From positions 204,225 to 268,224 of IMG/VR virus record IMGVR_UViG_3300011226_000001: 64,000 nucleotides of DNA; one strand, given 5' to 3'. Positions 14,804-28,654 of this stretch are shown one piece after another. The notes beneath the pieces are model-generated. The model was not told the origin of the DNA. It saw only the letters and a list, made by a program, of their open reading frames with translations, and searched no databases. The stretch is from a virus. Taxonomy: Duplodnaviria > Caudoviricetes. The position numbers and the translations under genes are program-made. Numbering within the stretch: position 1 is the first letter of the stretch; each line of letters opens with the position of its first letter.

Positions 14804-17500
14804 ATGGCTAAGCCACAAGAGAAAGAGTTGTCCGCACTCGAACTAATGATCGAACATGCAGACAGCATTAGTCCTTCTGTTGCCGGTATGCCTAAAGCGC
14901 GACGCAAACGTAAAGCCGCTAACGATTCACCTGCGGTAGATTACGAACGCGATTACGACCCAGAACTGTACGATGATGAAGTTGTATTTGTCGGACCTGG
15001 GTCACGCGCTAAGAACCGTGCAGCAAAAGCGTTGCGCGAGAAGATGGCCAATCAGCGTGTGCGTTATGTCAGTGATAACGATGCACCAACTTCTCCTCGT
15101 GCTGTATCGCAGCAACCAAACCCACGTGAAGTTGAATCAGCACTTGAAGACCTGTTCATCGCAGGTGAGAAGTCTGGTGATGATATCGTTAAAGCAATCA
15201 AAGAGGGTAATGCAGTCTCAACGAAGACGCAGAAAGCCCTCGAAGATTGGCTTGAGTGGGAAAAGCGCGAAGCATTCAAAGAGAAGAACCGCGCCAAGTC
15301 AGACCCCCATGGTAATCAGCCAGGTGCCGGTGGCCCCGGAACCGGTGGTGCAAAAGATGATGGAGGACCTGATGAAGATGATAACGGCGGTCCTGATTTC
15401 GGTGATAATGGCAACAATAATCGCCGTCGTCGTACCGGTGGTCGTAATCGCCGTGGCAGACGCTACGGACGCAGTTCAGGATCACGCAGAGGTCCGGGGC
15501 GCAACCTTCCTCGACGCAGATTCCCACGATTAAGAGGCAAGGCTGGTGCGCTGTTAACTCTCGGTACTCTCGCTGCTGCTACTGCTGGTGGTTTGTGGTT
15601 GAAGAACGAATCGCAAGAGAAGTTCGAGCAAGATAATGCTGGGAACGGCGGTGCGGGTATGCCTGACAATCAGGCCGTTCCTGCTGAGGCCCCTGCTCCA
15701 GTTGCTCAACAACCCGAGATTCAACGCGCAGAAGAAGCTGCTAAGGGTGATGCACCCAAGCCTCCGTCAGAAGCACAAGACGCTGCTGTTGCTGGTGCTT
15801 CCTTGTTGCTTGCTGGTGCTGCGAAGAAGATTCCTGTTGTAGGTCCTGCTCTTGGTAACGGTTTGTCGCTTGCGAACGATATGCAGCACATCGACGCAGA
15901 CGAAACGATGACCGACCAAGAGAAAGCGCACGAGAAGAAAAAAGCAACTGGTGGTGCTATCGGAGGAACTGCTGGTGGCACTACAGGTGCTGTTGCTGGC
16001 GCGTGGATTGGCGGTACGTTAGGTTCAGTCGTTCCTGTTGTTGGCACTGCTGCTGGTGCTGCTCTTGGTGGCTTGCTGGGTGGCATTCTGGGTGATTACT
16101 TCGGTAACTCTATCGGTGAGTATGTTGCCGATAAGATAACTGATGAAACAGACACGATGCTCGCTGACGGTGAGAAAGACCGCAAAGAGAAGATGGACGA
16201 GTACAACGACACTACCGCAGAGAACGAGAACAAAGCGAAGTTCCCTGCACCATCTGTTTCACCTTTCAGCTTCATGGGTCTGATGGGTATGGGGGGCTCT
16301 GGTGGTGGCACGTATCAAGGTCCGATGCGAGCACAACCGTCTAAGCGTTATGACAGCAAGCAAGTAACCGATATCGCTAACAAAGCAATTGCTGAGGGTG
16401 GTCTTGGTTCTGTTAGTGAGCAGTTCGAATCAGGTGGCCGTGGTGTAGGCACTGTGTCTACTGGTCGTGGTGATTATGGTGGTGTGTCTTACGGCAAACA
16501 CCAGCTTGCTACGAACAACGGCAGCATGATGAACTTCTTGAACAGCCCTGAAGGTAAACCGTTCTTGCAACGCTTTGGTGGTCTTGCTCCGGGGACCGCT
16601 CAGTTCAACTCTGTCTACAAAGACGTTGCGAGTTCTCAAGGTGCAGAGTTCGATAAAGCGCAGTCTGACTATATCACGCGTACTCACTATGCACCTCTTG
16701 CTGCGAAGATGCAGAACGAAGTGGGTGTTGATTTGACGAAGCGTGGTGCTGGTGTCAAGGAGCTGATGTATAGTACCGCTGTGCAGTACGGTGCAGGTAC
16801 AAGCGTCATCTCTAATGCACTGCAGGGTAAAGACGTTAACTCAATGTCCGACGAAGAATTGATTAAGACAATTCAGGACTACAAGGCAGCGACCACCGAC
16901 AGATACTTCAAGTCATCTGATGCTCAGACGCGACAGTCCGTTGCGATGCGAGCGCAGAACGAGAAGGATGTGTTGCTCAAAGTTGCAGAAGCAGACAGGA
17001 AGAAGAAAGCTGTAAATAACCCAGATGCGGAGCTTGACGCCAAGATCGCTAAACGTTTCCCGGACTTACCTAAGGGTAGCGGTAGCGATTACAGCAATAC
17101 TCAAGTTGACGCAAACAAAGAATCATTGCCTGACTTAACAGGTCGTGGTCCGGTTACGCCTAAGTCTACTCCTGAAGAGCATGAGCGTCGTTTGAACGAA
17201 CTCGTTGCTGCTGCGGCTCCTGATGTGAAACGCATTGAGCCTGTAGTGCAGCCAGAAGCTCCTGTTGAGCGTGTGCCTCTCGTAACACCTGGAGACATTG
17301 CTCGTACAGAAGTACCTGAACCTGCTGTTGCAGCACCCCCACCAACTCAAACAGCCAATCAGCCTAAAGGCGGTGCAGTATCTCGCCCAAGCTCGAAAGG
17401 TTCAAGTGGCTCTAGCCCTAGTAACTCACACTCACTCGATTCAATTCCAATCTTCATGGATGACCCGATGCTGAATATGATTACTATGGGTTACATGTGA
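14804..17500 (+). CDS. tape-measure-like virion protein with VgrG3-type peptidoglycan hydrolase domain
   Basis: Gly/Ala hydrophobic zipper segments; domain LGSVSEQFESGG...DYGGVSYGKHQL...YSTAVQYG at ~16400-16985 matches the lysozyme-like family of Vibrio cholerae VgrG3. Confidence 0.7.
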   Translation: MAKPQEKELSALELMIEHADSISPSVAGMPKARRKRKAANDSPAVDYERDYDPELYDDEVVFVGPGSRAKNRAAKALREKMANQRVRYVSDNDAPTSPRAVSQQPNPREVESALEDLFIAGEKSGDDIVKAIKEGNAVSTKTQKALEDWLEWEKREAFKEKNRAKSDPHGNQPGAGGPGTGGAKDDGGPDEDDNGGPDFGDNGNNNRRRRTGGRNRRGRRYGRSSGSRRGPGRNLPRRRFPRLRGKAGALLTLGTLAAATAGGLWLKNESQEKFEQDNAGNGGAGMPDNQAVPAEAPAPVAQQPEIQRAEEAAKGDAPKPPSEAQDAAVAGASLLLAGAAKKIPVVGPALGNGLSLANDMQHIDADETMTDQEKAHEKKKATGGAIGGTAGGTTGAVAGAWIGGTLGSVVPVVGTAAGAALGGLLGGILGDYFGNSIGEYVADKITDETDTMLADGEKDRKEKMDEYNDTTAENENKAKFPAPSVSPFSFMGLMGMGGSGGGTYQGPMRAQPSKRYDSKQVTDIANKAIAEGGLGSVSEQFESGGRGVGTVSTGRGDYGGVSYGKHQLATNNGSMMNFLNSPEGKPFLQRFGGLAPGTAQFNSVYKDVASSQGAEFDKAQSDYITRTHYAPLAAKMQNEVGVDLTKRGAGVKELMYSTAVQYGAGTSVISNALQGKDVNSMSDEELIKTIQDYKAATTDRYFKSSDAQTRQSVAMRAQNEKDVLLKVAEADRKKKAVNNPDAELDAKIAKRFPDLPKGSGSDYSNTQVDANKESLPDLTGRGPVTPKSTPEEHERRLNELVAAAAPDVKRIEPVVQPEAPVERVPLVTPGDIARTEVPEPAVAAPPPTQTANQPKGGAVSRPSSKGSSGSSPSNSHSLDSIPIFMDDPMLNMITMGYM

Positions 17501-25275: not shown

Positions 25276-27039
25276 ATGAACCTCATTAAAAAGCAGTCCT
25301 CGATCATTCGTGATCTGAGTATCATGCCGTTAACCGTCAGCCGAATTGGCGATGCGTTTGTTGGCCTTAGCTCCAGCAACGTTGCCTATGCTTGGCGTCA
25401 CGGTGAAATCTTTGACTTCGCTGCTGGTAGCGATGTACGCTTCGAATCACTGAATGCGAATACCATCGAACGTATCAGCGGCCTGAACTTTGCGGGTAAG
25501 CACGAAGATGTAGGTACAACCGTTTTCATGTCCAGCACAAGCGCCGTGCATCTGCATCTTGGCGATAAGCGCGAACCGTATTCTGTAGCGTCTTCATTCG
25601 ACCTGATGCCGGCCGTGCGTGACTTCGCTGCATCGCTGTCTAATACCGGTAAGGCAATGGAGATTGCTTCTGAGTCTGCCGGTGCTCGCACTTACGCTAC
25701 GTACACAGGTAAGAAAGTCGTTGTCGATGACGCTAACGACGAGTATGACCTTGAGCTGGAGAAGGGCGACAAGTACAGCATGGTTTATCTGAACCGTGAC
25801 CGCTATGAGTTGCGCCTGAAAGATGAACCGAAGATTGTGTTTATCGTTCGTGGTCATCTGCGTGTCGCTAACATCATTGGTCAGACTGAGTTCACTAAAC
25901 AGTTTGGCGCAATCGCTAACGACAAAGCAAACACGTTCCAGCCGGTCGGTGTTGTTGGTCGCAACATGGCTACGCCTTTGCAGATCAAGAAAGACACAGT
26001 TATCTACACGTACCGCAAGAAACACTATCTGCCGCAGAACCTTGTTGTTCCGCTTGAGAAGATTCTTGATGGTGCGTCACTGTCTAAGCTGATCGACAGC
26101 CTCAAGCCGGTTAAAGAAAACAAGCATATCGTCAAAGGTAAGCTGGTGGGTGTTAAGCTGCCGCCGCTAGCTGGCGGTAAGAAGATTGCTTCTGACCAAC
26201 CTATTAAGAAAAACGTGCAGGCTGTTTACGGTGCGTTCTTCCCTGTGTCTGCCTCTCAGCCTAACCGTAGTCGTGTTGTCTTCGGTAAGACCGTGAAAGA
26301 AGCGCAGACGAAAGCGGTTGAAGCTGTTAATCGCATGGCGGTGCCGACAGACTACTACCTGTTCAGTACAACCACCAGCGATGAATTGTATGACCTCGCT
26401 AAGGGTGGCTCTGTGTTGATTCGCGCTACCGGTGTGTTGCAGCATACGTATGCCAATGCGAAGCACGTATCGCTCGGCTACATGGACAACCAGACCGAAC
26501 TGCGTGATCCTGTGAAAGTAGGCGTGCCTGAGTTGCGTGTTGCTGCTATCAATCAGAACACGAAAGAGGTTGTCAAAGAAGTGCTGCGTCTTCTGACAGA
26601 AGGCTACTTCAACACAGGTCTGCATCTGTCTGTGCGTCAACCGGAAGAAGCAATCAGCTTCGAAGGTACATTTGACCCACGTACTCGCGATCAGCTTACT
26701 GGTATCGGCCGCCGCATCGCTGCGTATCTCAAGCAGAACGGTGTGAAGCTGGAGAACGGTATGATTCGCGCTGCGTTCGGACAGAAACGTGCAGAACTGC
26801 GATTCAAGCTGCCTACGCTTTCAGGCGCTGCTTTGCAATCTGTAAATAAGATTCAGACAGACGAACCAACTCTGAATGCTCCGATTTATGCGACCATCAA
26901 GCCTAAACAGCCGACTGTCGAAATCACTGCATTCAACCGCCACACTGGTTACGTGACTGTACGCGCTCAACGCGGTCCTGAACTGTACTCTGAGCCGTAT
27001 GAAACTTTATATTCGAATATTGAACGTAAAGCGTTCTAA
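25276..27039 (+). CDS. large hypothetical protein, probable processed internal head protein
   Basis: N-terminal ~135 aa has several S-x-S motifs ending at IASESAG, followed by the domain shared with the 3056 and 12076 ORFs. Confidence 0.6.
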   Translation: MNLIKKQSSIIRDLSIMPLTVSRIGDAFVGLSSSNVAYAWRHGEIFDFAAGSDVRFESLNANTIERISGLNFAGKHEDVGTTVFMSSTSAVHLHLGDKREPYSVASSFDLMPAVRDFAASLSNTGKAMEIASESAGARTYATYTGKKVVVDDANDEYDLELEKGDKYSMVYLNRDRYELRLKDEPKIVFIVRGHLRVANIIGQTEFTKQFGAIANDKANTFQPVGVVGRNMATPLQIKKDTVIYTYRKKHYLPQNLVVPLEKILDGASLSKLIDSLKPVKENKHIVKGKLVGVKLPPLAGGKKIASDQPIKKNVQAVYGAFFPVSASQPNRSRVVFGKTVKEAQTKAVEAVNRMAVPTDYYLFSTTTSDELYDLAKGGSVLIRATGVLQHTYANAKHVSLGYMDNQTELRDPVKVGVPELRVAAINQNTKEVVKEVLRLLTEGYFNTGLHLSVRQPEEAISFEGTFDPRTRDQLTGIGRRIAAYLKQNGVKLENGMIRAAFGQKRAELRFKLPTLSGAALQSVNKIQTDEPTLNAPIYATIKPKQPTVEITAFNRHTGYVTVRAQRGPELYSEPYETLYSNIERKAF

Positions 27040-27069
27040 AATCTGTAAATAAAAATTGCAGATAGTAAT

Positions 27070-28049
27070 ATCAAGTTGTAGCAAGAGACTTACTTCGCGG
27101 GCAGTCTCTTGCTGGTCCATAAACTCACGCGCTGTATTTCTTGGCGGCATGTGAGCCTCCAGCCGGTTTGAGCTTATGCTCTGTAATCGTGAGGACAACC
27201 CCGGCACCCACGTGATGGACTGTTGCTCTGTCGCTGACGCCCATAAGGCCCAGCTCTTTTCATCTTTGTGACATGGCACGGCAGCAGCCTCTAGGCACGT
27301 AGACTGGTGGAACGTATTCTCAACGTTGTGACCACTCTTTTAGGGATAGCAGTTCGCAGTTACGCTGCCTGATGCACATTGGCTGGCAATAACAGTGTGC
27401 ATTGGGGAGATATCTACTCTCCATGACAATTCCACCAGCTCTTTCCTACCGATGTACAACACGGTGAGGGTATGTAGTGTGTCATCCAGCGGACGACTCA
27501 GCACACTGCGTACAGGATTGAACTGTAAGAGTCTTAATGTGATAAACATCCGCGACCCTCATGGGTGCTGTGCCTTTTCACGGTATCTAGGGAGTAAAAG
27601 AACGTAGACGAGATACTCAAGTGATGTTGGGCGACGAGCGACTCTGCGTTTGGTCAAAGCTGTACACAGCCTGTTGAGCATTGCCCTTAACAATGTTCAA
27701 TGGAGTGTGTCCGCGCCATGCTGCCGTTGACGTGCTGCCATAGCTTGCCCACTTTTCCGGGTAGTGAAATATCGTATAGGACTTGTTAGCGGTCAATCGC
27801 GTTCCTACCACGATCTAATGCACAACAAGAGCGATTGTTAAAGAGTGTATCAACCACCGCAGATCACCGATGGGTCACCTCCTTCGCTTGAGCGATGCTG
27901 TTAGGGCATACGGAACTTTTCCACTTTTTCCGCCGTGTGTCCTTGATGTGTTGTTCTTGTGTGCGGTTTCCGCAGCCCAGGCGGTAAAGAGAGAAAGAGA
28001 GTTGAAACCCTAGTGATGTTGGGCGAAGGGCAACTCGAAGTAACTTGAT
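27070..28049 (+). ncRNA. candidate large structured non-coding RNA (~980 nt), family not recognised
   Basis: No credible CDS in an otherwise gene-dense region; ends pair (atcaagttg 27070-27078 with taacttgat 28041-28049); many nested stems whose imperfections are G-U pairs on the + strand; duplicated 15-nt hairpin loop. Confidence 0.7.
27620..28026 (+). repeat. exact 15-nt direct repeat AGTGATGTTGGGCGA (27620-27634 and 28012-28026)
   Basis: Read directly; both copies cap hairpins. Confidence 0.9.
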
Positions 28050-28077
28050 CGACATTTGCAAATGTTTTACTTACAGT
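28049..28077 (+). promoter_or_regulatory. sigma70-like promoter overlapped by a 14-bp palindrome
   Basis: TCGACA(28049-28054)-17 nt-TACAGT(28072-28077); palindrome ACATTTGCAAATGT at 28052-28065. Confidence 0.55.
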
Positions 28078-28096
28078 AGAGACACAAGGAGCAAAC

Positions 28097-28255
28097 ATGA
28101 TTTTGTTCTACGTGTCGCTGATAGCAATCGTGATGCTTGGTCACTTGCTATCATGGTCCGAGAGTCACTTACAGTTGCCGTTTGATGCGGCTTCACTCTC
28201 GGTCAGTCACTCCGGCTTAGTAGCTTCGGCTACCGGGCACTCGCTTCGGGTGTGA
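28097..28255 (+). CDS. 52-aa small protein with hydrophobic N-terminus (below ORF-track cutoff)
   Basis: AAGGAG RBS at 28086-28091; MILFYVSLIAIVMLGHLLSWSESHLQLPFDAASLSVSHSGLVASATGHSLRV. Confidence 0.5.
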   Translation: MILFYVSLIAIVMLGHLLSWSESHLQLPFDAASLSVSHSGLVASATGHSLRV

Positions 28256-28284
28256 GGGAGTACGCGACACAAATCCAAGCATAG

Positions 28285-28320
28285 AAAGCGGGTGGCCTTC
28301 GGGTCGCCCGTTTTCGTTTC
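28285..28320 (+). terminator. rho-independent terminator with C(UUCG)G loop
   Basis: aaagcgggtggcc-ttcg-ggtcgcccgttttcgtttc. Confidence 0.85.
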
Positions 28321-28333
28321 TACTGCACACAAA

Positions 28334-28341
28334 GCTAATTT
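28334..28341 (+). promoter_or_regulatory. GCTAATTT putative late-promoter motif
   Basis: Between the terminator and the PAAR gene, 28 nt before ATG. Confidence 0.55.
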
Positions 28342-28363
28342 GTGCCTAACAGAGGAGAATATC

Positions 28364-28654
28364 ATGGGACAGAAAGCTATTCGACTAGGCACTGACCTGT
28401 CTACTGGTCATAACGGTTACTTCCCTGTTGTTCCGGCACAAGCATCGTCTAACGTGTTCGTAAATGGCAAAGGTAGTGTTCGTAATGGCGATAAGTACAA
28501 GCCACACTGGAAACCGAAGAAGCCACCTCATACAGGTACCGCTATCTCAAACTCCAGTGTGCGTGTCAATGGCAAGCCTGCCCAGCGAGCCGGTGACCCA
28601 AACAGTTGTGGTGACACTGCTTCTAACGGCAGCTCTAACGTGAGATTTGGCTAA
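28364..28654 (+). CDS. PAAR-repeat spike tip protein (gp5.4-like)
   Basis: GAGGAG RBS; AIRLGTD...SSNVFVNG...VRVNGKPAQRAGD...CG...GSSNV. Confidence 0.88.
   Translation: MGQKAIRLGTDLSTGHNGYFPVVPAQASSNVFVNGKGSVRNGDKYKPHWKPKKPPHTGTAISNSSVRVNGKPAQRAGDPNSCGDTASNGSSNVRFG

Follow-up and report, generated by a model that had tools for sequence, protein, structure and literature searches.

The 15-nucleotide sequence AGUGAUGUUGGGCGA (also written AGTGATGTTGGGCGA) occurs twice in the genome of a jumbo phage, on both occasions as the terminal loop of a hairpin within a structured non-coding RNA of about 1 kb. Our assignment, which we regard as evenly balanced, is that selection maintains this loop as a sequence-specific module on which a trans-acting partner docks, with a protein favoured. 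The loop would tip a hairpin module of about 39 nucleotides, present twice as a peripheral element of an RNA that is presumably transcribed from the + strand in jumbo phages of the Alexandravirus type, from a promoter-like motif to an intrinsic terminator, upstream of the baseplate genes. Selection appears to hold the sequence of the loop and the pairing of the stem but not the sequence of the stem, which suggests that the loop is a docking surface shown twice on one RNA. An A-rich bulge and a short stem would present an irregular loop rich in non-canonical contacts of the G·A type. The candidate partner is a protein, as a dimer or in two copies, encoded by either the phage or the host.

The two sites are located on the + strand at 27620–27634 and 28012–28026 of the window, the stretch of 64,000 nucleotides that was analysed, which itself comes from a jumbo-phage genome of 268,224 bp that carries terminal repeats. 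The first-pass annotation had claimed that the 15-mer occurs exactly twice, and searches of the window and of the whole genome bear this out. With up to two mismatches allowed, these remained the only sites in the window (shuffle mean 0.15). The degenerate pattern AGTGAWGTYGGRCRA identified the same two sites alone in the whole 268,224-bp genome and gave no match on the opposite strand, and the complement of the 15-mer has no other occurrence anywhere in the genome.

Each copy caps a hairpin that comprises an outer stem, a three-nucleotide A-rich bulge, a stem of 3–4 bp and the 15-nucleotide loop, with the pairings of both copies as the annotation had drawn them. In module 1 (27601–27650, + strand) the outer stem is formed by 27601–08 and 27643–50. 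An internal loop of tandem G·A/A·G at 27610–11/27640–41 adjoins the pair G27612–C27639 and the bulge AUA (27613–15). The inner part (27616–27638) consists of CUC 27616–18 paired with GAG 27636–38, and A27619·C27635 flanks loop 1 (27620–27634). In Snuvirus, positions 27610–27611/27640–27641 are Watson–Crick C–G/G–C pairs instead of the tandem G·A/A·G. Module 2 (27999–28036, + strand) has the outer stem GAGUUG 27999–28004/CAACUC 28031–36, the bulge AAA (28005–07), the inner stem CCCU/AGGG (28008–11/28027–30) and loop 2 (28012–28026), which is again AGUGAUGUUGGGCGA.

The paired sequences of the two hairpins had also been described as different. This is true of the outer stems, which alone are unrelated; the inner unit is largely shared. 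The repeated unit exceeds the loop and covers about 33 nt (27612–27644 compared with 28004–28036) that are 82% identical between the copies, and it includes the G–C pair, the A-rich bulge (AUA or AAA), the 3–4 bp stem and the 15-nt loop with its variable closing pair. The copies in phage SNUABM_22 have 28 identical bases in common. A covariance model of the module, R1, was built from both copies pooled (alignment A5). Applied to the genome it gives exactly two matches, 61.8 bits for module 2 and 61.3 bits for module 1, with the next best at 11.5 bits; over the genomes searched it finds two copies per genome, with no other match exceeding 12 bits.

Among named phages, the closest relatives belong to Alexandravirus and infect Erwinia amylovora and Dickeya solani. 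Both modules were found in all of the Alexandravirus and Snuvirus examined, with the loop consensus AGUGAWGUYGGRCRA. Pairwise identity is 0.94 in loop 1 (13 Alexandravirus and Snuvirus sequences) and 0.85 in loop 2, compared with 0.53 and 0.57 in the modules' own outer stems and 0.64 in the other unpaired columns. The stems covary. Seven of the 12 pairs of hairpin 1 (alignment A3) and eight of the ten pairs of hairpin 2 (alignment A2) display double changes, with 91.5 and 90.5% of cells paired, respectively, whereas slid controls pair 29–47% of cells against the approximately 91% observed. A conserved loop on unrelated stems had been put forward as the likely appearance of a selected binding site, and the comparison supports that view. 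The annotation had held that lack of conservation at homologous loci would speak against it; in Alexandravirus and Snuvirus, for example, the motif is conserved in both copies.

Variation within the loops is itself restricted. Loop 1 varies by U6A and U9C only, and loop 2 by U6A, U9C, G12A and G14A together with one diverged copy, that of phage Alexandra. Positions 6 and 9 switch repeatedly among UU, AU and AC in both copies, and UC was never seen. That the same restricted states were reached independently by both copies suggests one common constraint on the two.

These comparisons bear on whether the 15-mer is displayed at all. The inner stem shows double changes among copies, occurring as CUC/GAG, CCC/GGG, CCCU/AGGG, CCAU/AUGG and CCU/AGG. 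It is very improbable that the loop is instead sequestered in an alternative or switching hairpin in which CUCAA 27616–20 of module 1 pairs with UUGGG 27627–31. Isolated module 1 adopts this pairing in its minimum-free-energy fold, and the RNAalifold consensus also contains it, but U9C converts it to an A·C mismatch in four phages and it is impossible in the module 2 variants CCCU, CCAU and CCUA. The stem of the CUC/GAG type, by contrast, has the true double changes CCC/GGG, CCAU/AUGG and CCU/AGG.

A still smaller chance, close to negligible, attaches to the idea that the repeat acts as DNA, as an operator or a packaging or replication site, or is the neutral remnant of a recent duplication. 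The two copies are indeed direct and lie 392 bp apart. The compensatory changes with G·U pairs, however, fit a + strand RNA only, and the absence of the complement elsewhere in the genome also speaks against such a role. Moreover, the identity of the copies is not recent, given that the loops have persisted in different genera despite divergence of the stems.

Further relatives bear on the relative age of the modules. A metagenomic phage, here termed phage X (flanking protein 62% identical), is without module 1. Its module 2 has the exact 15-mer, scores 43.4 bits (contig L082) and carries yet another outer-stem sequence. Contigs L066 and L082 correspond to IMG/VR 3300013825 contigs _000009 and _000007, which overlap inside the RNA; they appear to represent one uncultivated relative, the RNA of which has module 2 only. 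In Sasquatchvirus Y3 hairpin 1 has a different loop, and hairpin 2 is diverged and wholly Watson–Crick, CUUGUGAC-AGUUGG-GUCGCGAG. No module was found in the more distant genera: Yoloswagvirus, Rivsvirus, Salmondvirus and Yersinia phage fHe-Yen9-02. A model of the 5' domain of the RNA nevertheless matches Dickeya phage JA11 (Salmondvirus; L069, 4442–4567) with 18.7 bits and a rough E of 0.001. The match is syntenic, 66 nt past the homologous upstream gene, and includes a compensatory change from CCGG/CCGG to CCAG/CUGG; additional genera may carry a shorter, module-less form of the RNA. From the presence and absence of the modules across relatives, the RNA looks older than the module and module 2 older than module 1, with the modules peripheral. 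Module 1 missing or replaced in phage X and Sasquatchvirus, with the RNA kept, is what would be expected of a peripheral add-on.

The motif and the module were also sought in other sequence collections. A 17-mer scan of viral contigs gave about 16 matches outside the phage family, all of them without hairpin context, which is about the number estimated by chance for a collection of that size. Three additional viral-contig matches were attributed to chance, and the module had no match in the E. coli genomes. Of the 84 loci returned by a metagenome scan in which a conserved block served as anchor, only one was a true homologue, already known.

Both modules are inside a gap of 1,324 nt (27040–28363). 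Upstream is a gene for a 587-residue protein (phrog_32352) with a KMPT-N domain; downstream are baseplate genes, encoding PAAR (28364–28654), gp25-like and gp6-like wedge proteins. The RefSeq annotation of the gap in relatives is either empty or consists of inconsistent small ORFs on either strand. Nucleotide identity within the gap is 70–89% throughout Alexandravirus, and it is partly conserved in Snuvirus and Sasquatchvirus. Coding potential was considered and rejected, since no reading frame is conserved in 27040–28096 and the variable sites are without three-base periodicity. In an alignment of 15 sequences (A4) invariant blocks, many of them unpaired, alternate with variable hairpins. RNAalifold predicts 212 pairs, 110 of which show compensatory double changes. 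In this structure 94.8% of cells are paired compared with 32–44% with slid partners, the covariation score is 0.42 compared with 0.05–0.11 in controls and none of 500 shuffles reaches the observed values; the structure came from the same alignment as was scored, which flatters these figures, but the margin is still large. The invariant G·U pairs assign the RNA to the + strand. The lack of a conserved ORF, the compensatory pairs and the strand-specific G·U pairs together strongly support, at the level of sequence comparison, a structured non-coding RNA, the core of which (27073–28049, + strand; about 1 kb) carries both modules. The module hairpins rest on the comparative evidence; they are not recovered when the whole RNA is folded from a single sequence.

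This RNA does not correspond to a catalogued family. Rfam 15 gave no matches in the window (cmscan, gathering thresholds) and, for 26900–28500 at E ≤ 10, two chance microRNA matches only. The covariance models of the large Rfam RNAs, including GOLLD, ROOL, OLE, HEARO, raiA, group I/II introns and RNase P, produced no match, and a scan for tRNA and tmRNA found nothing. No paralogous copies of the RNA were found; the terminator alone recurs. An internal duplication of the whole RNA was rejected on the grounds that the other short repeats are unevenly spaced.

One unpaired segment deserves separate mention. Positions 27876–27884 read CACCUCCUU, which we take to be identical to the anti-Shine–Dalgarno end of 16S rRNA. 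The consensus fold leaves the segment unpaired. It does not vary in Alexandravirus and Snuvirus, is UCCUCCUU in phage X and is not kept in Y3. It could pair with Shine–Dalgarno-like purines, for example GGGAG 27591–95 or the AAGGAG of a small ORF described below.

Signals that would delimit the transcript are present on either side of the core. Directly upstream, at 27043–27051 on the + strand, is a promoter-like motif, the recurrent 9-mer CTGTAAATA, which lies within a 33-nt block (27040–27072) that is invariant or near-invariant in all relatives (alignment A4). The block was rejected as a repeated element because it is unique and just its CTGTAAATA core recurs. There are 29 sites for the 9-mer in the 268-kb genome, at 17010–17018, 26840–26848 and 27043–27051 in the window and at 26 further positions, mostly 15–100 nt 5' of a Shine–Dalgarno sequence and start codon and often just past terminators. 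It resembles TATAAATA, which we take to be the T4 late promoter, and judged by its placement it is probably the core of a promoter of the phage, perhaps a late one. The RNA would then start at approximately 27057–27060. A terminator scan predicts an intrinsic terminator at 28284–28315 (+ strand), which would end the unit ahead of the PAAR gene. The terminator hairpin (28290–28319) is itself recurrent, with near-identical copies at genome position 140242 and in relatives; Klebsiella and Pseudomonas phages have similar hairpins.

An ORF for a hydrophobic protein of 52 residues (28097–28255, + strand), preceded by the strong ribosome-binding site AAGGAG, separates the RNA core from the terminator and may be part of the RNA's transcript. 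The open frame and a hydrophobic, membrane-like N-terminal segment are kept in most relatives, including Alexandravirus, Sasquatchvirus and phage X; in Snuvirus the start position is occupied by ATT. The 3' half of the ORF overlaps covarying hairpins with tetraloops, and the protein has no family match.

We now consider the conformation of the loop. The K-turn is defined by a three-nucleotide bulge closed by tandem G·A and A·G pairs (PMC1874613), and the annotation had read the 15-mer as a K-loop. In a true K-loop the C-stem would be followed by AGU as the three-nucleotide bulge and by tandem sheared pairs G4·A15 and A5·G14; the tip of the hairpin would be kinked, either alone for tertiary packing or bound by a K-turn-binding protein. 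We regard this as possible but doubtful. The order of elements in the consensus, a stem, AGU, G4A5, then G14A15 and a stem, does fit the definition. A canonical, covarying stem of 3–4 bp is positioned directly 5' of AGU, as expected of a C-helix, and G2, U3, G4 and A15 are invariant in the Alexandravirus and Snuvirus copies. GUGAUG corresponds to positions 1–6 of box C. The likeness to box C (RUGAUGA) that had been pointed out holds in that GUGAUGU matches six of the seven positions, but position 6 is A in many copies.

It is the natural variants that weaken the K-loop proposal. The A·G pair is broken where G14 is replaced by A in two lineages (SNUABM_3 and SNUABM_2) and where A5 is replaced by G in copy 2 of phage Alexandra, together with a change of G10 to A and an extra U. 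An A·A pair at 2b·2n is, according to the Lilley laboratory, reportedly a rare natural variant of the K-turn, and G14A need therefore not be fatal. The pair that adjoins the bulge, the equivalent of −1b·−1n, is often not Watson–Crick, being A·C in 13 of the 22 module copies, U–A in seven and A–U in two. The AGU 'bulge' never varies, unlike the usual bulges of K-turns. In the Sasquatchvirus Y3 orthologue GUGA is paired canonically and there is no 3' GA. A search of the complete phage genome for PF01248, the L7Ae family, gave nothing at E ≤ 1; the control genomes that did score were those of Firmicutes, archaea and a few others. An alternative mini-helix in the RNAalifold prediction, G2–C13 and U3–R12, is kept by the changes G12A and C13U. 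The three-dimensional fold of the loop is something that we infer, and no single reading of it accounts for all of the natural variants.

What the loop contacts can be approached independently of its fold. Protein-binding hairpins, among them coat-protein operators, boxB, TAR and the CsrB/RsmZ repeats, typically present identical loops repeated on stems of unrelated sequence. Here the loops are identical and non-palindromic, their stems are unrelated, both show the same restricted variation and they are dispensable in some lineages; on these grounds we favour a protein. Conserved peripheral loops also serve in RNA–RNA contacts of large ornate RNAs, so that the protein partner, the nature of which we infer, is a preference and not a result.

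Contacts to RNA, with receptors either in the same RNA or in neighbouring protomers of a homo-oligomer, are in our estimation unlikely but worth serious attention. The carrier RNA is large and highly structured, and its many invariant unpaired blocks are potential receptors. An A-rich bulge beside a loop is typical of A-minor docking, and this is the layout of the module. The change U9C in loop 1 (27628) accompanies a change from C–G to U–A at 27164/27203, some 430 nt upstream, in two lineages. The phages concerned are SNUABM_30/phB78 and SNUABM_7/45, and the joint change could reflect a tertiary contact or a coincidence. There is also precedent, in that GOLLD, ROOL and OLE form homo-oligomeric complexes composed of RNA only (PMC12286853).

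Against RNA contacts, no covarying complementary partner was identified among segments whose complementarity to the loops holds in 85% or more of the aligned sequences, a search that draws on about 12 independent sequences and that a non-Watson–Crick tertiary partner would escape. The lone conserved complement of the loop, UGCCUGAU at 27366–27373, is invariant and already lies within a supported helix. Long-range partners of the loops proposed on energetic grounds are not conserved. The loop is not self-complementary, with a best loop–loop duplex of −5.6 kcal/mol, which makes symmetric kissing of two identical loops unlikely. No matching pair of repeated receptor motifs was found, the RNA persists where module 1 is absent and it matches no large RNA of Rfam in sequence or structure.

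Literature on Alexandravirus, jumbo-phage non-coding RNA, structured phage RNAs and phage K-loops provided no description of the RNA or the motif. We describe it as a phage RNA, large and structured, in which a putative recognition hairpin is repeated and for which K-loop is a tentative label; neither Rfam 15 nor the literature searched contains it. At least three genera of jumbo phages of Erwinia and Dickeya have kept the RNA, and a fourth probably carries it.

A more ambitious proposal, which we rate as a long shot, is that the RNA of about 1 kb constitutes a new class of phage-encoded ornate RNA made late in infection from a locus next to the baseplate genes, in which the identical loops serve as assembly contacts, either in an RNA-only homo-oligomer or in a scaffold for two molecules of a protein of the virion or the host. 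If true, this would place an RNA component in jumbo-phage morphogenesis or host takeover. Large structured non-coding RNAs of unknown job are rare and each rewards study; ROOL, GOLLD and OLE proved to be RNA-only assemblies. The present RNA has its own promoter-like motif and terminator next to a baseplate operon. The duplicated loop provides an experimental handle, being short, invariant and exposed, and it could be mutated without altering the fold. It might also be used as bait for the partner and so help to reveal what the whole RNA does. Such experiments are practical, since the phages are isolates employed against fire blight.

The module resembles several known systems and differs from each in some respects. 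K-turns and K-loops, such as the L7Ae-type sites and box C'/D' of archaeal sRNA, share with it a canonical stem, three unpaired bases, GA and a later GA leading into a stem. The module differs in that the GA pairs have exceptions, A·C is frequent as the adjoining pair and the phage has no L7Ae-family protein; the setting of the K-turn and K-loop sites is archaeal or eukaryotic RNP, whereas that of the module is a phage of enterobacteria. A box C/D sRNA would have the box D sequence CUGA, in place of which the module has GCGA as its 3' element. The bulged-G motif of the sarcin–ricin loop and loop E, consensus AGUA/GAA, resembles the module in that the 5' strand reads AGU and then a purine, and the 3' strand GA, and A1 facing C16 presumably recalls the A·C flank of the sarcin–ricin loop. 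The module differs in having G rather than A at position 4 and in that its strands are joined by a loop of 6–8 nt; a bulged-G fold is conceivable by analogy.

With GOLLD, ROOL and OLE the phage RNA has in common its size of about 1 kb, an intricate, covarying, non-coding structure and, as for many copies of GOLLD and ROOL, an association with phages; its conserved peripheral loops, known here from sequence comparison, could mediate assembly. It differs from them in having no Rfam match, in its occurrence in Erwinia/Dickeya jumbo phages and in being situated beside baseplate genes and not tRNAs. A CsrA-binding decoy of the CsrB/RsmZ type was considered and rejected: the loop mostly has GGG, with GGA only in copy 2 of SNUABM_35 and SNUABM_7, and there are two copies per RNA and not many. 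Protein-binding hairpins in general, among them those of CsrB/RsmZ, coat-protein operators, λ boxB and HIV TAR, differ from the module in that its loop is longer (15 nt) and present in two copies only. They resemble it in the display of one short loop on unrelated stems and, in the case of TAR, in a similar layout of bulge, short stem and loop.
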